A stretch of DNA of 40,224 nt from a virus (Duplodnaviria > Heunggongvirae > Uroviricota > Caudoviricetes): the IMG/VR virus record IMGVR_UViG_2734482777_000019; one strand, given 5' to 3'. The notes below the pieces were generated by a model that had not been told where the DNA came from, searched no databases, and saw nothing but the letters and a program-made list of their open reading frames with translations. Shown here in pieces: positions 1,475-40,224 of the stretch. Each line of letters starts with the position of its first letter. The first letter of the stretch is position 1. Both the position numbers and the translations under genes were made by a program.

Positions 1475-3316
1475 ATGACAGTTACAACAAAGTTCAGAAA
1501 TGACATTAATGGCCTAAGAGCTATAGCTGTTATAAGTGTTGTTTTGTTTCATTTTTCATCTTCTATAATTCCAGGCGGATTTATTGGTGTAGACGTGTTT
1601 TTCGTCATATCTGGATACTTGATGACATCAATTATATTCAGAGGGATAGAATCTAATTCTTTTTCGGTTATTGACTTCCTGAAAGCAAGGGCGAGACGTA
1701 TAGTTCCTGCTCTCGTTGCAGTTGTATTCCTTACACTGATTATTGGTTATATGTTCTTTGAGCCTATGACATTACAGATCATAGGAAAACATTCTGCGGC
1801 AAGTCTAACATTTATTTCCAATATTATTTATCAGTCTGAATCAGGTTATTTTGATGATACATCAAAGCAAAAATTTTTACTGCATACATGGTCGCTATCA
1901 GTTGAATGGCAATTCTATATAATTTACCCGATAGTGTTACTTGCACTGTCAAAGATATTTTCAATAAAAAATCTTAAAATATTTGTTGTTGCGATTGCTG
2001 TTGTTTCTTTTGCATGGTGCATTTACATAACCAGAACTGATCCCGTGTCATCATACTTCAGCATCGCATCAAGAGGTTGGGAAATGATGCTGGGAGGCAT
2101 TGCTTTTCTGTTCCCGTTTAAAGGTAGCGATAAATCAAGACGAGTTTTGGAATCAGCAGGGCTAATATTGATCGCGCTGTCTCTCGCGTTCATGAGCGAA
2201 AGCTTGGCGTGGCCTGGCTACATTGCGTTTATTCCAGTATTCGGGGCCTATATCTGCATTCTTGCTGACAATAAAAGAACCATTCTTTCTGGTAAGATCA
2301 TTGAAAAGCTTGGGCTCTGGTCCTATTCAATATACTTGATCCACTGGCCGGTAATCGTCTTTTGCGAGAAGACGGGAATTGAGTTAAATATTTTCTGGTA
2401 TCTGGCTGGTGTAGTGTCAGCCTCAGCACTACTTTATAGCCTTGTAGAGAAGCGTCGTGGTTATGGATGGGGATTGCTTTTCTGTTATTGTGTATGTCTC
2501 GCAGCCGCTTTGTATGTCAATGTCGACGGGGTAAGTAGTCGCATTAAGAATCCTGATTACCATCTTAATAAAGACCTGTTCCGCCGGGCTTACGAAGGAC
2601 ATTTATGGATGCAGCCTGGAGAGAATGTAGACTACTTCAACGCTACAGAAAAAGACTTTGACTACATCATACTTGGTGACAGCCATGCAAGACACTATTT
2701 CGCTTTCTTCAAACAAAGCGGTCTTAAAGTAGCATCGCTAGCTGCGGATGGTTGTAAAGTTACAAAGCATTTTATGGGGCCGCTAAACTATTCTGAAAAA
2801 CTCAGAAAGATTTGCGAAGGAAGATATAAGAAGGCCGTTGAATTCATTAATGCCCATCCTGGCAAGAAAGTCGTATGGTTGCAAGCGTGGTATACTGGAA
2901 AGGTTGGAAACCCGCTAACGACTGACAATTCTTATAAAAATGATTTCATCAGTGAAATGAAATATTTTCTTGATGATATTAAAGGCTCTAACAGCCAGAT
3001 ATATATTGTTGGTGATACCCAGGGAAGCAAGGAAATCATGTATCAATGCCTGGCATCACAAGACCTTCCTATTAATAAATTATTCAGAAAATGCAATGAG
3101 TTTCAGGATTATATAGAGCCTGCAATGAATAGCAGATTTAAAATATTTGCTGAGCAATATCAAAAAGTTCATTTCGTTGACCCTAGCCCAGCAATATGCA
3201 GTGATGGCAAATGTAGAGTGGTTGATGGAGATATGCCTGTTTACACGGATAACTCTCATCTTACAAAGGTATGGTCAGTTAAGGTTGGTGAATATATCTT
3301 TAGCAAGATAAAGTAG
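1475..3316 (+). CDS. Membrane acyltransferase (acyltransferase-3 family with C-terminal SGNH-like domain), O-antigen acetyltransferase-like moron
   Basis: 613-aa ORF with hydrophobic multi-TM N-terminal two-thirds and soluble C-terminal domain; AT-rich relative to flanks; preceded by AT-rich intergenic region; lies between int and tailspike where P22-like phages carry serotype-conversion genes. Confidence 0.8.
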   Translation: MTVTTKFRNDINGLRAIAVISVVLFHFSSSIIPGGFIGVDVFFVISGYLMTSIIFRGIESNSFSVIDFLKARARRIVPALVAVVFLTLIIGYMFFEPMTLQIIGKHSAASLTFISNIIYQSESGYFDDTSKQKFLLHTWSLSVEWQFYIIYPIVLLALSKIFSIKNLKIFVVAIAVVSFAWCIYITRTDPVSSYFSIASRGWEMMLGGIAFLFPFKGSDKSRRVLESAGLILIALSLAFMSESLAWPGYIAFIPVFGAYICILADNKRTILSGKIIEKLGLWSYSIYLIHWPVIVFCEKTGIELNIFWYLAGVVSASALLYSLVEKRRGYGWGLLFCYCVCLAAALYVNVDGVSSRIKNPDYHLNKDLFRRAYEGHLWMQPGENVDYFNATEKDFDYIILGDSHARHYFAFFKQSGLKVASLAADGCKVTKHFMGPLNYSEKLRKICEGRYKKAVEFINAHPGKKVVWLQAWYTGKVGNPLTTDNSYKNDFISEMKYFLDDIKGSNSQIYIVGDTQGSKEIMYQCLASQDLPINKLFRKCNEFQDYIEPAMNSRFKIFAEQYQKVHFVDPSPAICSDGKCRVVDGDMPVYTDNSHLTKVWSVKVGEYIFSKIK

Positions 3317-3318
3317 TT

Positions 3319-3348
3319 AAAAAGCCTCTACTCAGAGGCTTTTTCTTT
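3319..3348. terminator. Bidirectional intrinsic terminator between convergent acyltransferase and tailspike genes
   Basis: Hairpin agcctct-actc-agaggct flanked by A-run upstream and T-run downstream, so a U-tract follows on either strand. Confidence 0.55.
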
Positions 3349-5149
3349 ATATCACCATATATCTGAAGCTTGCTCCGCCTGCAGCTGGAGAACCTGACTG
3401 CGTAGCAAGGACAAGACTTCCGTTTGATTGACTTAAAACATATGCATTTGCTGCTGCAGCTGAAGCATTTGCTGGGTGAATCACAACTTGTGAATAAGGT
3501 GTTATATTTTCATCAACCAGTGTTGCTGAAGCTACACCACTCAATCCATTGAATGCCTTCATCACCATCTTTTCAGTTGCAGAAAGAAGGACGTTTCTTA
3601 TTGTAAATGTACCTCCTCCAGTTGGGTTTAGCTTTGGAATGAGTGCACTTGTTACGGTTGTAAGATTGCAATTTGTCAAGACAAGATTATTTTGATAACT
3701 GGTAACCTGTGCAATACCTGAATTAACAACAGTGGCATTATTCACGGTGTTATCTGTAGCACCATCCGATTGGTTAACACCACTTTTTCCTGCAGCATTA
3801 ATATAAGCTGAAAGAACTCTGGTATTTGCCGATCCTGCCGCAAAGTTAATACCGTTTTGCTCGCAAGTATTAACATAAACACTCTCAATTGTGGATCCTG
3901 TTGTTGGCAGTCCAGCATGTCCAAAGTTAATACCGTGGAAAAATTGCGTGTTGGTAGATATCAACTTTCCTGCCATGCTCCAGCGGCAATCAAAACCAAT
4001 GCCTGATGCTGATGCAAGATCCACAGATGCATAAAGCAAACGGTTATAATCACCACTAAATTGAATACCAGAATAAGCGTCATCACCAGAAGCGCCTTGT
4101 GCATGCCCTAGTGCCGCAATACTTCTATTAGTTTTGTAAATATAAAACGCTTCATGCCCCCACGATTCAATCCGATCAACGATAAACTTTGAGTAATGGC
4201 ACTGATAGAAAAACAGACAACCAGAGCCGTCATTGCGGATTCCATCTGGTGATGGTGCACTTATAAAAGTGCGAGGGTAGTAATGGTCATGGACATAATG
4301 AGCGTAAAAATCTACGTTCTGACACTCTGTCAGATAGACAAGATGGGTTCCAATCTGTCCTGATTGTCCTGCTTTATTACCATCAATCTCATTAATGTGA
4401 ATTATTAGACCAGAGTTATTACCTGCTGCGTAAAGTAATCTGTCAAAGTCGACACATCCAGACGGTAATTTGAGCTTCCCCTTTACAATCACTTTTTTTG
4501 CTGAAGAAAGGTTGAGATTTTTTGCAACGAGAGTAAACCCTTCGGGAACAATCAGCATACCTATATCGTCAATCATCTTCTGAGCTGAGATTGATGATTC
4601 AACTTCGCTCACAGCTCCCCAATCTGCAACTGTAAGATTCTCTGCATTTTTTTCATGCTGAGTCCTTTTTACTGCTCCGGTATAAGGTTGAATAACAGGT
4701 ATCATTGCATCTCCGTCGCTGATACCTGCACCAATCAAATCTGCAACAGTGTGACCAGGACAAAGACCTATTAATGAGGCTCCATCATCACCAGACAACT
4801 CCTGTCTTAGCTGATCTGGATCATACTTCAACACGTTTGGATAGTTGAACTGCTGTGTACCATAAGCATCGTACACAGCCATAGAATGGCCTTGCACGGT
4901 AACGAATTTGGCAATCTGTCCGTTATATACAGGATAACCAGCAGCGTTAATGATGATTGGTTGCGAAACAGGAACGTGAGAGCCGTCTTCGTTCTCCACA
5001 TAAACCTGAATCTGGTTTTCAGGATTTACCGGATCAGTGTCAATTTTACCGATATAAATTTTGCCATTGGCTACGGCTTTAAAAGAACGCGCCATAGTGA
5101 AGAGTTGCGAAGGCATCGATACGATCACATTGGCTGTAATGTCTGTCAT
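3347..5149 (-). CDS. Tailspike protein with P22-type N-terminal head-binding domain and divergent receptor-binding domain
   Basis: N-terminal ~110 aa ([11 protein letters not shown]...VLKYDPDQ) closely match the P22 gp9 head-binding domain; the remainder is Gly/Ser/Asn-rich, beta-helix-like and not P22-like. Confidence 0.9.
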
Positions 5150-5285
5150 TTAATTTGCTCCAGATACAAGGAATCGCCGCAGCATGGCTACGGTTGGTAT
5201 TTGTTTGGTTTTTGAACTACGAAAATTTCGTAGTGCTATCCATCAAGGCCATCGCCGCTTAGTTGCTGCGGTGAATTTTGGGCAT

Positions 5286-5308
5286 AAAAAAACCCAGCCG
5301 AAGCTGGG
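5286..5308 (-). terminator. Intrinsic terminator downstream of ant
   Basis: On the minus strand cccagc-ttcg-gctggg hairpin followed by a 7-nt T-run, immediately after the ant stop. Confidence 0.55.
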
Positions 5309-5327
5309 TCGTTGCGTTGGTTATCTG

Positions 5328-6206
5328 TCAGTAGTTATGTACTGAAGGAGGCAATTCTTTATTCTTAAGTCTCATCCATGCGGAAAGATTCGTTGGTCCG
5401 TCTGGCTCATTAATATCAACATCTCGTGTGTGGTTTATTAAAACGTCTCTCGCCATTCCGATAACATACGAGAATTCATGACCGTAGTCGTAGCATCTGC
5501 CGGAATAGTTCGATTGAATTTGTTTTAGCGCCGGATACAGTTCGCGGAATAATGCCTGTGAGCGGTTGGCATAATCCCATAACCATACAAAGCTGTTTGC
5601 TTCTTTTGCAGAAAGCTCGTTGGTTTTCTTCTCTTGTTTGCCAATGAACTCACCTTCAAGCACTACCCTGTGGATGTACTCTACGGCCAGCGGGATTTGT
5701 TCAATTGAAAGTTCATCAATGCTGTCAATACCAAAACGCTGATGAACCATATTGTATGCATCGTCATAGCGAAGTCCTTTCTTTCCTACCAGCATGTTTA
5801 CTGCATCGCGTAGCGGTGTTCTTTCCTCAACAGTGGTTTTCTTTCCTTTTACATACTCGCCATGTTTGCGAATTGAAGGCAGAACTTCTGCTGTTACCCA
5901 CTTGCGGAATTTGTGCGGGACTGAACCTTTATTGACTGCATCGCGGCAGCGCAGAACCAATGTATACATACCTGATTCGCTCACAATGCTTAGATTCTGC
6001 TCACCACCAAGGGTGTAACTTAAAGTTACTCCCTTTTCATCGTCATCAAGTGCAGTAAGCGCCTTGCGTGAGTTAGTCAAATCTAAAGCATCACAAACAT
6101 CTTTAGCTACAAACCACGGCTCACCGCACTTGTTGATGACGCGGATTTCACTGTCGCCGAATTTGAAGATGGTGAAATCGTTTTGTGCCTTTGCTATACT
6201 TTTCAT
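5328..6206 (-). CDS. ant: Antirepressor (Bro-N domain family) of the immI region
   Basis: 292-aa ORF with Bro-N-like N-terminus ([16 protein letters not shown]); located directly downstream of arc as in P22 immI. Confidence 0.8.
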
Positions 6207-6274
6207 GTCAATATTTCCTAATCCGATTTGTTGATGCCGAAGCCCTGACTGTTACAGCAGTTGGGGCTTCAACT

Positions 6275-6436
6275 TTACGCACCAATGCGCCCTTCCTTCT
6301 TAAAGCTTTCCATTACTCGCTGATAAATCTCAGAATTAACAGACCGACCATTTTCTTCCGCCACCTTGCGTACCAAATCCAATACTTCTTTAGGCCACCG
6401 CAAATTGAACTGTGGCATTTTGCTCATTCCTTTCAT
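6275..6436 (-). CDS. arc: Arc repressor (ribbon-helix-helix)
   Basis: Internal Met gives 53 aa MKGMSKMPQFNLRWPKEVLDLVRKVAEENGRSVNSEIYQRVMESFKKEGRIGA, near-identical to P22 Arc; the longer track ORF would start inside the Arc operator. Confidence 0.95.
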   Translation of the reverse strand: MKGMSKMPQFNLRWPKEVLDLVRKVAEENGRSVNSEIYQRVMESFKKEGRIGA

Positions 6437-6452
6437 GTTCACCTCACAATAT

Positions 6453-6469
6453 AGGTCCACGGTGGACCT
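6453..6469. promoter_or_regulatory. Mnt operator (perfect 17-bp palindrome aggtccacggtggacct) within Pant
   Basis: Perfectly symmetric sequence matching the P22 Mnt operator, located between arc and mnt. Confidence 0.8.
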
Positions 6470-6478
6470 ATTGAGAAT

Positions 6479-6499
6479 ATAGTAGAGTGCTTCTATCAT
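6479..6499. promoter_or_regulatory. Arc operator (atagtagagtgcttctatcat)
   Basis: Matches the P22 Arc operator sequence on the opposite strand; immediately upstream of the arc start on the minus strand. Confidence 0.8.
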
Positions 6500-6526
6500 G
6501 TCAATACACTAACTTGGAGTGATGGC

Positions 6527-6781
6527 ATGGCTAGAGATGATCCGCACTTTAACTTCCGTATGCCTTTGGAAGTAAGAGAAAAATTGAAATTAAGAGCCGA
6601 GGCTAACGGAAGGTCAATGAACTCTGAGTTATTACAAATCGTTCAGGATGCACTATCAAAACCATCACCGATTACAGGATATCGCGACGAAGCTGAACGC
6701 TTGGCTGATCAGCAGGCTGAGCAGTTCAAGGCTATAGTGTTTGAGACACTTAAAAAGATTTATGAAAAGGATTTGAAATGA
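6527..6781 (+). CDS. mnt: Mnt repressor (maintenance of lysogeny, RHH family)
   Basis: 84-aa ORF MARDDPHFNFRMPLEVREKLKLRAEANGRSMNSELLQIVQDALSKPSP..., near-identical to the P22 Mnt N-terminal domain. Confidence 0.95.
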   Translation: MARDDPHFNFRMPLEVREKLKLRAEANGRSMNSELLQIVQDALSKPSPITGYRDEAERLADQQAEQFKAIVFETLKKIYEKDLK

Positions 6782-7113
6782 GATTTCTATCACTGTTCTT
6801 GTTAGCAGTTGTCTCTTCTTCCAGTGCTGAGCTGCGCGAGCTTCAAACGGGTAATGACCTTCTTTACAACATTCAACAAGGTAAAAAGGGTGATGATTTT
6901 TCATCGCTTTACATTACTGGATATTTGCGCGGAGTAACTGACTCATTGATACTAATTGGTTCTCTATGTCCTCCTGATGGCGTTGACATGTATCAATACA
7001 CCGATATCGTTGAGAAATATCTAAACAAAAACCCAGAATCAAGAAATGAGAGTGCAGTTATACTAACCGCCCTAGCAGTAGGAAAAACATTTCCGTGCAA
7101 AAAGAATCAATAA
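6778..7113 (+). CDS. Hypothetical secreted protein (cleavable signal peptide), translationally coupled to mnt
   Basis: 111-aa ORF; start overlaps the mnt stop (ATGA); N-terminus MRFLSLFLLAVVSSSSA is a typical signal peptide. Confidence 0.6.
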   Translation: MRFLSLFLLAVVSSSSAELRELQTGNDLLYNIQQGKKGDDFSSLYITGYLRGVTDSLILIGSLCPPDGVDMYQYTDIVEKYLNKNPESRNESAVILTALAVGKTFPCKKNQ

Positions 7114-7128
7114 CAATAAGGGCTTAAA

Positions 7129-7518
7129 ATGAAATTGATTATAGCAATGGCTTTCCTTGTCTTCTCGTTTTCTGTCTCAGCAGAGTGCTGGGTCGTTGGA
7201 GATATGCACGGAATAAGCTATTCAGAACGAAATAATTTTCAACCGGAAGAAGATGGTTTTAGTGGAACATTCATCATTAAGACAAACGGTGAAGATGCCA
7301 GTATCACATATTCTGGGACGGATGCGGGCGGCATGGCTTACAAAGCATTGTCTAAAAACTCCATCATTGGAATCGGCGCGAATGGCGAAACTCAACGAGT
7401 TATCGACTCATGGGTAATACATCCTAATGGAACAGTTTTAATGTCGAAAACCATTTCTGGTTATGGGAATATGGATTCAACCAAAGCTTTTGTTGGAAAA
7501 GTAAAAAGAAAATGTTAA
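7129..7518 (+). CDS. Hypothetical secreted/periplasmic protein
   Basis: 129-aa ORF with signal peptide MKLIIAMAFLVFSFSVSA followed by ECW; 15-nt spacing after the previous gene, same operon as mnt. Confidence 0.6.
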   Translation: MKLIIAMAFLVFSFSVSAECWVVGDMHGISYSERNNFQPEEDGFSGTFIIKTNGEDASITYSGTDAGGMAYKALSKNSIIGIGANGETQRVIDSWVIHPNGTVLMSKTISGYGNMDSTKAFVGKVKRKC

Positions 7519-7542
7519 CGATTGAATCCAATTCCCCATACG

Positions 7543-9384
7543 TTACTGCTGTGTTGCCTCAGTAGCAAGCAGCGGCCTGATGGCATTTGCAGCGTTACTC
7601 AACGCTCTTTCATAGGCTGGCGTTCCAGCTTTAGTGTTTGCCAGACGTAAGAGAGCATTCCTTGCTGCTTTGGACTCATACAAACGCATCATTGCACCAA
7701 AGCCAGCCTCAAGCCCCATTGATACACCAAGAGTCGCAGTTGCGCCAATCGTCCTTATCCTGTTGGCTTGTGATTGCCCCGTCTGAGTTACTACATTTGC
7801 GGTGTCTGACCTTGCTGTTTGCTGTAGAACTTCATGAAGAGCATCAAGCTCTTTCATGTGCTTTCCAGAAAAAATAGTGTTGTAAATTTCACCGCCTGAC
7901 TGAGATTTCAGCTTATTAACTTCAGTGATGAACTTGGCTGGAGAGTCACCGGCCTTTTCCGCTATTTTGCTGACGTAAGCTGCACGCATAGCATCTTTCC
8001 CTTTATCATCCAGGGCGCTCCATATTCGTTTCACGTCAGATGGTTTTCTGCTTAATACAACGGTATTTATAAGTTCAGGACTGGCTTCACTGCTTGCCTT
8101 GTTGAGCTTGTTAGCAATGTTTTTATTAAGCACCTTATTATAAACGTTTGCATAATCGGAATTTGCTTTAAGGTATTTTGCTGCGTCTGATGCACCGAGG
8201 TTTTTAGCAACTGCGTTACGAAGGTCTTTTGACATTGCATTCTCTACCATATTGGTAGCTGCTTTTGCCTGGTTGGGGAAGACCATAGCATCTCCCTGAA
8301 CATTAGATCTAAATGCTGTTCTGTGCTGACGCAAGAGATCAAACGTAACATCCAAATCAGTTGCAGGGTTTGCTAATTCTTCACGTAGGTTACGCAAGGA
8401 TGTAAGCAGGCTTTGATTGGCAGACGTCCCAAGCCGTTCCTGTCTTGCGATCGCTGTATTCAGAGCATTCATGGTATTTGTGGTATCAACTGCGGCATTA
8501 CCCATTTTATTGGTGACGTCATTGATAACAGCGCCAGCGGCATCCTTCCGCCCCCTTAACGTGGTGGTAAGAGATTTCACCACATCATCAGGGTTGTACT
8601 CACCAAAACGGTCAAAATAATTACTTACCAGCTTACTACGCGTTGCATATTGCTCCGCTCGCTTTGAGCCTGTCCCGAGCAAAGCCCCCTCGGCATCCTG
8701 AGTTAGGCCGCGAGTGAAAGCATTTTTCGGCGGGATAACATCAGATGTCATTGGTGTCACGCCCATCGATTCTGATGTGGCAATTTTCTTCGCCACTTCT
8801 GGCGCAATATCACCTTTTATAGCCGTTATTCCACGCCCTATTCCCTTTGCTGCTGCGGAAAGAACACCCTGAGTGGCAAGGTTAACTCCGGCATTTTTAG
8901 CTGCATTTTGTGCGAAATCGCCTTTCTGATTTGCGGCCTCTGCCAGTGATCCAATAGCCATGCTTCCTGCCGTTCCAACTCCTGGAACTAAATACCCACC
9001 AATTGTTTCACCGGCTTGCGCGTAGGGGTCTGTCGGTCTGTCTACTGGACGATAAACATCATCCAAAACCTTGGGTCCACCAAGCCCCTGACTGATTGCA
9101 TTAATCAGACTTGCGCCGCCCTGCAATACGTCAAATGGTATGTTTACCAGACCACGACCAGCCTGTTCTGCAATTTGCCCTGCACTTTGACCACCAGTGA
9201 GCCAATCGCCAGCTTGTTGGATCAATGATGGTTCTTCCCGTGTTGGTGCATTATTGGCCTGATTAACTGTTTGTTGCTGAACAGCCTGACCAGCAAAATA
9301 CTCATCAATGGCGGTGCCAATATCTTCGGTGCTCGTACCATCAGGAAAGGTAAATGTCTTACCGTTTGCAGTTACTTTCATCAT
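7543..9384 (-). CDS. Ejection (internal/injection) protein, P22 gp16-like
   Basis: 613 aa (P22 gp16 is about 609 aa), last gene of the gp7-gp20-gp16 ejection cluster; Ala/Gly-rich. Confidence 0.85.
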
Positions 9385-23401: not shown

Positions 23402-23477
23402 TGGTGCTGGTTAACGGACTTGAACCGCTACCCATTCGCTTACAAGGCGACTGCTCTACCATTGGAGCTAAACCAGC
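23402..23477 (-). tRNA. tRNA-Thr (anticodon UGU)
   Basis: 76-nt cloverleaf GCTGGTT..GCTC/GAGC D-arm, anticodon loop CTTGTAA, T-arm GGTTCAAGTCC, acceptor AACCAGC, discriminator A, encoded CCA; one mismatch at the base of the anticodon stem. Confidence 0.7.
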
Positions 23478-23482
23478 ATATT

Positions 23483-23557
23483 TGGCGGGACAGCGTGGAC
23501 TCGAACCACGATAAGAAGGTTAACAGCCTTCCGTAATGACCTTTATACGACTGACCC
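23483..23557 (-). tRNA. tRNA-Asn (anticodon GUU)
   Basis: 75-nt cloverleaf: acceptor GGGTCAG/CTGTCCC (1 mismatch), anticodon stem GAAGG/CCTTC, loop CTGTTAA, T-arm CGTGG-TTCGAGT-CCACG, encoded CCA; loop and T-arm match E. coli tRNA-Asn. Confidence 0.75.
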
Positions 23558-24985: not shown

Positions 24986-25587
24986 GCGGCCTCACTTCTG
25001 CTGTTTCGCAGGTCTTTAAGTTTCTGCTGATACTTCGCCTTGATCGCCCTGCATTCTTCGACAGTCCAGCGATGGCGGTTATGGTTCGATTCGATTTCGT
25101 CTACTGCTTCCTGCCCGATGCGGTTAATCAGTTCGACGCGATACGGAACGAGATTTCCGCTTTTGTGCTGGTTGCACACCACGCATTGCTTGTGAATATT
25201 GCGTTCATCAAATCGGAGTTGAGGTGTCGCAGCAGTTGTCCGGTAATGTCCGGCATCCCACTGAGCAGACGTGAGCGTTCCGCACGAGATACATGGTAAG
25301 TCGCGGTCTCTTTCTCTGATGAAGGCGTTTACGGCTTGTTGGGCTTGTTTAATCCAGTAACTGCGGGGCTTTAAGGCGAGTTTTCGAATCTTAAGTTTAT
25401 CTTTCTGTTTCTGCTCCTCTCGTCGTCGTTTCTTCTCTGCTGCCTTTTCCGCTTTTTCGCGTTCTTTGCTTCGTCGTTCGAGTGCTAATTGAGTTCCGTG
25501 TTCCGGGCTGCACCACCACTGATTTGAGAATGCCGGGTGAAACCATTCCTTACAGATTTTGCATTTCCTTCGCGCTGGTTTAGCCAT
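24982..25587 (-). CDS. ninG: NinG (Rap recombination endonuclease family)
   Basis: 201 aa, N-terminal Cys-rich region and Lys/Arg-rich segment, closely resembles lambda NinG. Confidence 0.9.
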
Positions 25588-25943
25588 TAAGCAGCCTCCC
25601 CTGTTACTTTCAGCATTCCGTTATCGAGCAGCTTTCTGGTCAGCCACTGTTGACCACGCCCGGTGATTTTTGTGGTGAACGATATCTGTATTCCGTGATT
25701 TGTATTGACCGCTGTTTCTTTCACTGTGAAATAGCCGCGCTCCATATATTCCTGCATTGGCACATTTCGCCGGGAACCTGAAGCAATAAGGATTTTGTGA
25801 TCGCGCATCCACGCAAACAGTTTGTTTGGACCAATACCAACAACCTTTGCAAAGTTTCCAATCAAAATTCCGCTGGCCTCGCCAACGCGATCGGCAAACT
25901 CAACTTTAGGTGCGGCAATTGCGAGCTGGTTTTCCAGTTGCAT
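25587..25943 (-). CDS. KilAC-domain antirepressor-like protein (C-terminal part of a Rha/Roi-type protein)
   Basis: 118-aa ORF; starts 1 codon after an in-frame TAG that ends the upstream Rha-domain ORF. Confidence 0.6.
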
Positions 25944-25946
25944 TTT

Positions 25947-26309
25947 CTACTCAGCAAGATCAGCAGCAAGGCGCAACGCTTCTGGTAGCGTTTTGGGGAT
26001 ATTAACCGAAGTTTCTTCAAGCTCTCGCCAACGGTCAACAAGACGAGCGGTGAATTCCGGCGACAACTGGGCTACAACGACAATACTGTCTCGCTTACCT
26101 TGTTCGCCCTCAAAAACGTAAGCCTCTACGCCACGAAGTAATCCTAAGTTATTGATTTTTTCGAAAACCACCATTGGGGGATTTCGGATCACACCTCGAG
26201 CCGCCAGTCGTTCAATAGATTGTTTCACCTTGTCATGACGACTTCCCACCAACTCAGCGATTTCAATGCTTGTCATTTTGATGGCATTGCCATTCATTAA
26301 CTCATTCAT
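25947..26309 (-). CDS. Rha-family regulatory protein (N-terminal domain)
   Basis: 120-aa ORF, Rha-like N-terminal domain; same reading frame as the downstream KilAC ORF, separated by a single amber codon. Confidence 0.6.
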   Translation of the reverse strand: MNELMNGNAIKMTSIEIAELVGSRHDKVKQSIERLAARGVIRNPPMVVFEKINNLGLLRGVEAYVFEGEQGKRDSIVVVAQLSPEFTARLVDRWRELEETSVNIPKTLPEALRLAADLAE

Positions 26310-32195: not shown

Positions 32196-32405
<210 letters not shown>

Positions 32406-32422
32406 TTAGTACATGCAATCAT

Positions 32423-32486
32423 TATCACCGCTAGAGGTAAAATAGTCAACACGCACGGTGTTAGATATTTATCCCTTGCGGTGATA
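32423..32486. promoter_or_regulatory. Right operator OR1-OR2-OR3 with divergent PR/PRM promoters (lambda type)
   Basis: OR1 tatcaccgctagaggta (32423-32439), OR2 caacacgcacggtgtta (32447-32463), OR3 tatcccttgcggtgata (32470-32486). Confidence 0.9.
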
Positions 32487-32493
32487 GATTTAA

Positions 32494-33210
<717 letters not shown>

Positions 33211-33241: not shown

Positions 33242-34114
33242 ATGGAACATGATGATTTACAGCAATTACCATCCCCATTCGCAAAATGGAAGGGGAAGAT
33301 CGACTTAGGTGGTGAAAGTATTGATTGCTATGTGCTTGACACTGGACATCGTGTTATAGCTTTGCGAGCAACTGTAAAAGCAATTGCCAATGCGGAGTCA
33401 GGAGACCTGGCTAAATTTATTGGCGTTAGCTCACTTAATGGCTTTATAGACAAAGACTTAGTCCTGGCCGAACTCATAGAGTTTTCCATACCAGGAACCC
33501 AATTTAAAAGCCAAGGACTTAAGACTGAGCAATTTGAATTGATTTGTCGCGGCTATGTACAGGCGCTATACAAAGGCGCGCCATTGACAGATAGACAGCG
33601 AGAAATAGCAATTAAATGTGCTGTATTAACAGCAGGTTTAACCAGGACTGGGTTAGATGCTCTAATTGATGAGGCTACTGGGTATCAGTATGAGCGCGCA
33701 GAGGATGCTCTCCAAGTAAAACTCAGGGCGTTCATCGCTGAGGAACTAAGAGCATGGGAAAAAACATTTCCTGATGAGTTATGGGAAGAATTTGGTAGAT
33801 TGACAGGATGGAGTACCCCATTGCAATCAAGGCCCAAATGGTGGGGGAAATTAGTTATAGAGTTAATTTATGACACTCTTGACGAAGATGTGGCTAAATA
33901 TCTTAAAGAAAACAAGCCTGCGGCAGGAGTTCACTGGCATAGACAGTTAACCGAGAACCTAGGTGTAAGGCAGCTTGTATCAAGGTGCTGGGAGGTTATT
34001 GGGGTCGCAAAAACATGCGACACCATGCATGAGCTAAGAAGTCGAGTTGCTCAACACTATGGAAAGAAACCTGTTCAAATGACAATGTATTTACCGGAAA
34101 AAGAAATTAAATAA
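33242..34114 (+). CDS. Hypothetical protein in the rexAB-equivalent position downstream of cI (candidate lysogen-expressed exclusion/defence gene)
   Basis: 290-aa product from Met 31 nt after the cI stop; no resemblance to RexA/RexB; AT-rich relative to cI; followed by an intrinsic terminator before OL/PL. Confidence 0.65.
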   Translation: MEHDDLQQLPSPFAKWKGKIDLGGESIDCYVLDTGHRVIALRATVKAIANAESGDLAKFIGVSSLNGFIDKDLVLAELIEFSIPGTQFKSQGLKTEQFELICRGYVQALYKGAPLTDRQREIAIKCAVLTAGLTRTGLDALIDEATGYQYERAEDALQVKLRAFIAEELRAWEKTFPDELWEEFGRLTGWSTPLQSRPKWWGKLVIELIYDTLDEDVAKYLKENKPAAGVHWHRQLTENLGVRQLVSRCWEVIGVAKTCDTMHELRSRVAQHYGKKPVQMTMYLPEKEIK

Positions 34115-34302: not shown

Positions 34303-34366
34303 TAACCATCTGCGGTGATAAATTATCTCTGGCGGTGTTGACACGCATACCACTAGCGGTGATACT
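34303..34366. promoter_or_regulatory. Left operator OL1-OL3 and promoter PL (lambda type)
   Basis: tatctctggcggtgTTGACA...taccactagcggtGATACTaaacacatcagcaggacgc matches lambda PL/OL. Confidence 0.88.
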
Positions 34367-34766: not shown

Positions 34767-35072
34767 ATGACAGTAGTCATTACATATCTGGCTGACGATA
34801 ACGCCAGAAATCGCCGCAGAGCACGCAGACAGGCTCAACGTGAACAGGCAATGCAAGAACAGCGACTGGCGCGAAAGATTGCGCTAAAGCTCTCTGGTTG
34901 CGTCAGAGCAGACAAAGCAGCATCACTCGGAAGCCTTCGCTGCAAGAAGGTAGTAGAAGTCGAGCGTAAACAGAACCGTATTTACTACCGGAAGCCACGG
35001 AGTGAAATGGGTGTGACTTGCTCAGGCCGCCAGAAGCAACGCGGAAAATCAATTCCAGCTTATTACGATTGA
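34767..35072 (+). CDS. N: Antiterminator N (phage 21-like body with divergent N-terminal arginine-rich motif)
   Basis: 101 aa; N-terminal ARM DNARNRRRARRQAQREQ; central and C-terminal segments (ARKIALKLSGCVRADKAASLGSLRCKK...KQNRIYYRKPRSEMGVTCSGRQKQRGKSIP) resemble phage 21 N and the lambda N C-terminus. Confidence 0.88.
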   Translation: MTVVITYLADDNARNRRRARRQAQREQAMQEQRLARKIALKLSGCVRADKAASLGSLRCKKVVEVERKQNRIYYRKPRSEMGVTCSGRQKQRGKSIPAYYD

Positions 35073-40023: not shown

Positions 40024-40224
40024 ATGCAACACGAACTACAACCTGATTCACTGGTTGATTTGAAATTCATCATGGCCGATACTGGCTTTGGTAAAACCTT
40101 CATCTATGACCGGATTAAGTCCGGCGACCTGCCAAAAGCCAAAGTTATCCACGGGCGAGCAAGATGGTTATATCGTGACCATTGTGAATTCAAAAATAAG
40201 CTCTTAAGCCGCGCCAATGGGTAA
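40024..40224 (+). CDS. xis: Excisionase / AlpA-family HTH regulator
   Basis: 66-aa ORF with AlpA-like HTH; its stop abuts the int ATG at position 1 when the window is circularised. Confidence 0.7.
   Translation: MQHELQPDSLVDLKFIMADTGFGKTFIYDRIKSGDLPKAKVIHGRARWLYRDHCEFKNKLLSRANG

Follow-up and report, generated by a model that had tools for sequence, protein, structure and literature searches.

Does a P22-type antirepressor act on the repressor of its own phage when that repressor is of the lambda type? The question is raised by a 40,224-nucleotide stretch of viral DNA (hereafter "the window"), which the initial annotation described as carrying two immunity systems in one genome, a lambda CI/Cro switch and a complete P22-type immI cassette, and in which the antirepressor was said to be obliged to act on lambda-type CI. 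We examined both immunity regions, compared them with those of related phages and prophages, and asked which repressors accompany the same antirepressor elsewhere.

The window has the appearance of a complete genome of a temperate, P22-like (Lederbergvirus-type) coliphage. An ORF of integrase length (385 aa) begins at base 1, a short ORF in the excisionase position terminates at base 40224, and the virion genes are syntenic with those of P22. The nearest phage records are CUS-3, phiv205-1 and Kapi1, each approximately 95% identical to the window over just 50-60% of either half. None of the phage records covers at least 80% of either half (the top record, CUS-3, reaches 61% and 51%), and no complete E. 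coli genome covers at least 80% of positions 1-25000. The window phage therefore represents a mosaic of familiar modules that had not been recorded before. Among its other genes is a 613-aa fusion of an AT3 acyltransferase and an SGNH domain (1475-3316, + strand), located between the integrase and tailspike genes, which probably serves serotype conversion as an O-antigen acetyltransferase. Between the Q antiterminator and holin genes, the minus strand carries two tRNA genes, Thr(tgt) and Asn(gtt), at 23402-23557, and the same placement of two tRNAs is found in Kapi1 and in the WCHEC050613 prophage.

The lambda CI/Cro switch of the initial annotation is indeed present. The cI gene (32497-33210, + strand) encodes an S24 autocleaving repressor with HTH_3 and Peptidase_S24 domains that is 98.3% identical to lambda CI, and the divergent minus-strand cro (32196-32396) matches the Pfam Cro family (PF09048, E 2.5e-34). 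The Cro protein appears to differ from lambda Cro by a single residue, V55I. All six lambda-type operators accompany these genes, with no more than one mismatch each in OR1 and OL1. Pattern searches for OR1, OR3, OL1 and OL2 returned four matches where 0.09 were expected. OR1-OR2-OR3 occupy 32423..32486; OR3 is identical to lambda OR3 and surfaces as a three-mismatch match to the OR1 pattern, and OR2, identical to its lambda counterpart, was found at 32447-32463 by direct reading of the sequence. In the OL3-OL2-OL1 array at 34304..34364, OL2 and OL1 were located by pattern and OL3 by direct reading. CI is still closer, at 99.2% identity, to the repressors of the wild lambda-immunity phages HK97, mEp234 and HK106; the operators of the window are likewise of the lambda type, with single-base variants in OR1 and OL1. 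These three phages are siphoviruses that are not known to carry a P22-type immI region. The records used for the wild lambda-immunity phages are those of Degnan et al. 2007 (EF1204xx).

Other genes adjoin the lambda-type switch. Directly downstream of cI, in the position of lambda rexA/rexB, lies a gene for a P63C-domain protein (33245-34114, + strand; PF10546, E 2e-22; PHROG 2384). Because it follows cI on the same strand, this gene is probably expressed in the prophage; PADLOC returned no defense-system match for its product. The N antiterminator (34767-35072, + strand) does not look lambda-like: its C-terminal two-thirds probably resemble phage 21 N, with a different arginine-rich N-terminus. 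If so, the module boundary would fall between OL and N. In the nin region, we also noted a second antirepressor-like gene (25587-26309, - strand) with a Rha-like N-terminus and a KilAC/ANT domain. It is colinear with the 240-aa Kapi1_032 product, and an in-frame TAG at 25947-25949 replaces the CAG codon for Gln121 and splits it into ORFs of 120 and 118 aa. This interrupted gene could be a pseudogene, a sequencing error or a gene with a suppressible stop codon.

The second immunity region lies between the tailspike gene (3347-5149, with a Head_binding domain) and a 613-aa ORF in the gene 16 position (7543-9384), which aligns with regions annotated as DNA transfer/ejection proteins in related phages. 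This is the slot within the P22-like virion module that holds immI in P22, and it is known as the fast-changing "ant moron", a site of high gene turnover (Villafane et al. 2008, PMC2629481). Reading rightward from the tailspike gene, the cassette comprises ant (5328-6206, - strand; 292 aa), arc (6275-6436, - strand; 53 aa) and mnt (6527-6781, + strand; 84 aa). arc lies directly upstream of ant on the same strand and mnt is divergent from both. Arc, the ribbon-helix-helix repressor of Pant, matches PF03869 (E 1e-30) and is 98% identical to P22 Arc, with R16K as the single change. Mnt, the maintenance repressor of ant, contains a PF03869 Arc-like domain and the PF11423 Repressor_Mnt domain and is 80% identical to P22 Mnt, its N-terminal ribbon-helix-helix DNA-binding part being almost unchanged.

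The control sites between arc and mnt are preserved as well. This intergenic DNA aligns with P22 without gaps, and operator positions were transferred through the alignment from the annotated P22 record (NC_002371). The Mnt operator is the palindrome ATAGGTCCACGGTGGACCTAT at 6451-6471, aligned with the annotated P22 mnt operator; it overlaps Pant and differs from its P22 counterpart only at the central base and at one flank base. The central base is the complement of that in P22 and is thus equivalent by symmetry. The Arc operator, ATAGTAGAGTGCTTCTATCAT (6479-6499; 21 bp), is identical to that of P22 and lies within Pant, between the divergent promoters. A promoter scan recovered both promoters independently of the P22 annotation: Pant at 6504..6476 on the minus strand (TTGACA-17-TATATT; 11/12 matches) and Pmnt at 6471..6499 on the plus strand (10/12 matches), the two overlapping within 6471..6504. 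Downstream of ant and upstream of the tailspike gene, a terminator scan identified an intrinsic terminator (5291..5310, - strand) with an 8-bp stem containing five GC pairs followed by a T-run, at the position of the annotated ant terminator of P22. Homology to P22 DNA covers two stretches, one of 563 bp (88% identity) and one of 717 bp (80%), and we rejected a chance resemblance because the homology spans hundreds of base pairs.

We also found a component that was absent from the earlier reading of the window. The antisense RNA sar, complementary to the ribosome-binding region of ant, is encoded on the plus strand at 6207..6276, across the arc-ant intercistronic region; the Rfam family RF00262, whose gathering score is 43, matches 6208-6274 at 65.6 bits. 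The predicted fold has two hairpins like P22 sar (-29.8 kcal/mol, z -5.96), and the 5' hairpin keeps its shape while differing in sequence. A candidate Psar within the first ant codons (6172..6200, + strand; GTGAAA-17-TATACT with a TG, by promoter scan) shares its position, spacer and -10 element with the annotated P22 promoter (GTGTTA-17-TATACT).

The gene order and orientation, the gene 16-tailspike slot and the positions of Pant, Pmnt and Psar are therefore common to the window and P22. The P22 immI region is reportedly arranged as mnt-arc-sar-ant (Sauer et al. 1983). The two phages differ in several respects: the partner immC of P22 is c2 and that of the window is of the lambda type, the P22 ant leader and sar 5' hairpin have other sequences, and P22 has sieA and orf59a where the window has a Rap1a-like gene and a gene for a 129-aa secreted protein. 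Ant itself differs as well. Residues 192-264 match the P22 antirepressor C-terminal domain P22_AR_C (PF10548, E 1.4e-29), and the protein matches PHROG 245 ("anti-repressor Ant", phrog_245) as a full-length hit over residues 1-277 (E 8e-112). However, P22 Ant has P22_AR_N (PF10547) at its N-terminus, whereas residues 1-120 of the window Ant (5847..6206, - strand) form a Bro-N domain (PF02498, E 2.8e-20); P22_AR_N is the only sequence-level feature of the P22 immI region that we did not find. Over residues 121-292 (5328..5846, - strand), which make up a helical middle module and P22_AR_C, identity is 85% with P22 Ant, 89% with epsilon34 Ant and 99% with Kapi1 Ant. Neither P22 Ant nor epsilon34 Ant is significantly similar to residues 1-120. 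DNA homology to P22 ends at 5843 and returns at 6191, within Psar, with none over 5844-6190. The swapped segment also includes the ant leader, which is why the sar 5' hairpin differs from that of P22.

The initial annotation is accordingly correct in much of its description: three intact ORFs lie exactly where it had placed ant, arc and mnt, and the operators that it called intact are identical to P22 (Arc) or altered at two bases (Mnt). Its "complete P22-type cassette" stands for mnt, arc, sar and the operators but not for the N-terminal 120 residues of Ant, and the comparison with P22 Ant that it proposed yields the same division, with close agreement only beyond residue 120. It had also named inactivating changes in ant as a reason for doubt. 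We rejected an inactivated ant, because the ORF is intact and its product is 99% identical to widespread alleles. Judged by its sequence, the most fitting description of the region is a Bro-N/P22_AR_C antirepressor set within a control circuit of the P22 type (mnt, arc and sar).

This chimeric antirepressor is common. Proteins 99% identical to the window Ant occur in Kapi1, EC.P3 and the WCHEC050613 prophage, as well as in many E. coli and Salmonella prophages, and one protein cluster, P0010, brings together 1319 sequences from 740 contigs; its identity is 95% with the C-terminal query and 97% over the full length. At least 80% of the immI cassette is present in 43 of the 5426 complete E. coli genomes. 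The C-terminal ~170 residues are 85-99% conserved in Ant proteins with three different N-terminal domains (P22_AR_N, Bro-N and KilA-N), and Stx phages share just the last 104-140 residues. In a library-wide search, some proteins shared only residues 1-195 with the window Ant, others only 120-292 and still others only 188-292. An AlphaFold2 (AF2) model (mean pLDDT 78.6, pTM 0.40) contains three folded modules, at residues 9-113, 130-184 and 200-259, of which the latter two are helical, with low-confidence linkers at the same junctions. We therefore regard Ant as a three-module protein whose modules recombine. Among solved structures, we found no significant match to Ant by sequence and none by fold with the AF2 model at E <= 0.001; the Bro-N part of the model weakly resembles the Ski/Dachshund and Mbp1 DNA-binding domains (Foldseek probability 0.9-0.98, but E > 0.1).

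Two named relatives illustrate how the parts of the cassette are exchanged. Phage vB_EcoP_Kapi1 (MT813197) encodes a 99% identical Bro-N chimera, shares the ant leader and sar region and is 97% identical in DNA to the window over 5251-6276. In contrast, its arc and mnt homologues are just ~40% identical to those of the window, and the P22 operators are missing. As annotated, the Kapi1 ant (MT813197 2564-3508) is 22 codons longer at its N-terminal end, where it runs into arc and the sar region; alignment with the window, P22 and epsilon34 suggests that the true start is an internal ATG (MKSIAKAQ...). The paper on Kapi1 does not discuss its antirepressor. The Ant protein of Stx phage phi24B (Fogg et al. 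2011, PMC3064807) has only its C-terminal part in common with P22 Ant, at 82% identity over the last 104 residues, and differs from the window Ant in its N-terminal region and genomic position. The C-terminal module thus travels with different N-termini.

The genes downstream of mnt are a separate matter. The first (6778-7113, + strand) encodes a 111-aa Rap1a/Tai-family protein (PF18602, E 1e-14) with a signal-peptide-like N-terminus and weak similarity to Tai4 (PDB 6IJF, E 0.08). Members of this family are immunity proteins against type VI secretion amidase effectors. Because its ATG overlaps the mnt stop codon (ATGA), the gene probably shares a transcript with mnt, started at Pmnt, and is probably active in the lysogen; it may be a lysogenic-conversion gene that guards the host against type VI secretion attack. 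In a literature search, we found no paper describing a phage-borne Rap1a gene. The adjoining gene (7129-7518, + strand), in the slot of P22 sieA, encodes a 129-aa protein with a signal-peptide-like N-terminus (PHROG 2651) that has neither a Pfam nor a PADLOC match, and PADLOC returned no defense-system match for the moron genes.

To examine how closely Ant is tied to a given immunity type, we compared the repressors that accompany the 99% identical Bro-N Ant allele in other genomes with the window CI. The allele occurs with at least four repressor classes. It is paired with lambda CI in the window phage and, in Kapi1, with a P22-type C2 that is 94% identical to P22 C2 and 36% identical to the window CI. 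The WCHEC050613 and APEC20/16 prophages have a repressor in which an unrelated DNA-binding N-domain is fused to a lambda-type C-terminal domain (98% identical), and the ETEC1747, SJC33, 631 and OkiPb01694 prophages share a repressor that is just 45% identical to the window CI. Conversely, P22-type C2 accompanies both Ant N-terminal types, that of P22 and that of Kapi1. Ant type thus does not appear to co-vary with repressor type in the sampled genomes, a pattern that fits a generalist antirepressor but would also fit free reassortment of the two immunity regions. The pairing of lambda immunity with this Ant was not seen in the other phage records inspected: none of the 36 phage records with a CI at least 95% identical to that of the window is among the Ant matches listed, and the 933W-like, lambda-immunity phage PhiR5_2 has no homologue of the window Ant in its first 50 kb.

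The cassette is also found with no repressor at all. A prophage remnant adjoining sbcB in three pig isolates (CUVM3, F719 and 2-1) has kept it, with 99.9% identity to the window over 5100-7600; in E. coli CUVM3, the remnant occupies 27986-42018 of NZ_CP116970. These remnants retain the ejection-protein genes, the two moron genes, mnt-arc-ant, the tailspike gene and gtr genes, but lack the head, lysis, replication and immC genes. Their presence in several pig isolates indicates that immI is maintained without any cognate repressor.

Taken together, the two regions are the classical bipartite immunity (immC plus immI) of P22-like phages, in a mosaic combination that is new although the kind of system is not. 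Both regions named in the initial annotation are therefore present and intact, and it is the framing as two immunity systems united in one genome that needs amending. Exchange of immC modules among lambdoid phages is already documented, and a lambda-specificity immC recombined into a P22-like genome that retains immI is a further example of lambdoid mosaicism.

For P22 Ant, an effect on lambda CI has been on record since 1975: the protein is reported to inactivate the repressor of lambda as well as those of P22, L and 21 (Susskind and Botstein 1975, as cited by Lemire et al. 2011, PMC3121763; Fogg et al. 2011, PMC3064807). This breadth and the co-occurrence of one allele with several repressor classes largely answer the question of target specificity posed by the initial annotation. 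It does not follow that Ant "must" act on lambda CI, because P22 Ant is dispensable for P22 induction, lysis and lysogeny (Lemire et al. 2011, PMC3121763), because the allele is found with four repressor classes and because the cassette is kept without immC.

We therefore favor, with a probability of roughly 0.65, a working P22-style secondary immunity (immI: mnt, arc, sar and ant) in the ant moron slot, whose Ant would be a broad-spectrum inactivator of CI/C2 repressors, its own lambda-type CI included. By analogy with P22, the regulatory logic of immI would hold as follows. In the lysogen, Mnt made from Pmnt would bind the operator over Pant and keep ant silent, with CI occupying OR and OL. 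Upon infection, Pant would fire briefly to produce Arc and Ant, and Arc would subsequently shut off Pant. Once convergent transcription from Pant ceased, sar RNA from Psar would pair with the ribosome-binding region of ant and block synthesis of Ant. Ant itself would combine an exchangeable N-terminal domain (here Bro-N) with the helical middle module and the conserved P22_AR_C, and would act non-covalently on repressors of the CI/C2 family without being tuned to one immC type, so that its targets would include its own lambda-type CI and the repressors of co-resident lambdoid prophages. This reading is supported by the completeness of immI, whose four components and control sites all occur in the same arrangement as in P22. 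Action on lambda-type CI in particular would rest on the conservation of the C-terminal modules and on the wide repressor range published for P22 Ant, and it is weakened because P22 Ant, the source of that activity, has a different N-terminal domain. The phi24B protein offers some support here, since it shares only the last 104 residues with P22 Ant and still accelerates derepression during induction; its authors were, however, unable to show their Ant acting on CI (Fogg et al. 2011, PMC3064807). The remnants without immC count against the favored reading, as the cassette persists there lacking a cognate repressor.

The main rival holds that Ant is not aimed at its own lambda-type CI, that its useful targets are the repressors of other resident prophages, which it would induce in trans, and that the pairing with lambda immC is accidental and functionally unlinked. 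The same sbcB remnants and the four repressor classes speak for this crosstalk, as does the dispensability of Ant for the P22 cycle; it has also been suggested that Ant links the induction of prophages residing in the same host (PMC3121763). Yet a broad specificity is compatible with action on the phage's own CI, and P22 Ant does inactivate its own C2 (PMC3121763). Moreover, the elaborate control by Mnt, Arc and sar is sensible only if unscheduled Ant harms the phage's own lysogeny. We consider this rival unlikely on balance.

Less likely again is a change of function brought about by the Bro-N swap, such that Ant has lost the ability to inactivate CI-type repressors, or lambda CI at any rate, and serves as a DNA-binding regulator or in another role. 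The dissimilarity of residues 1-120 to P22 Ant and the faint likeness of the Bro-N model to DNA-binding domains could be read in this way, and Bro-N is found fused to many unrelated C-terminal domains. Many Bro-N proteins themselves carry an antirepressor annotation, however, and both the strong conservation of the C-terminal modules across all N-terminal types and the retention of the whole P22 control circuit around ant argue against a loss of the original activity. We give very little credence to the proposal that what remains of the ant moron is an inert, decaying cassette, or one that acts mainly in cis to modulate late-operon read-through into the tailspike gene. HK620 and Scho1 do carry degraded ant and arc genes, and an influence on tailspike expression has been suggested for the P22 ant moron (PMC2629481), but all ORFs, promoters, operators and the sar RNA are intact in the window, and the presence of at least 80% of the cassette in 43 complete E. 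coli genomes speaks against the proposal as well.

The favored reading, a broad-spectrum Ant under P22-style control, can be extended in a more specific and quite tentative form. Residues ~120-292 might bind S24-type lambdoid repressors universally, irrespective of operator specificity, with the swappable N-terminal domain (P22_AR_N, Bro-N or KilA-N) adding a second activity. Because a natural phage pairs a Bro-N Ant with authentic lambda CI, the CI mutants, structures and reporters available for lambda could be used directly to map the contact surface. As a discovery, the combination is of small significance, and it is an expected product of mosaic recombination. We found no solved structure related to this P22-family antirepressor, and the phage is a natural test bed for mapping contacts between Ant and its repressor, in which the target would be lambda CI, the best-characterized repressor of all. 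The occurrence of one Ant allele with four repressor classes, or with none, supports the view that these antirepressors are generalists in the crosstalk between prophages.
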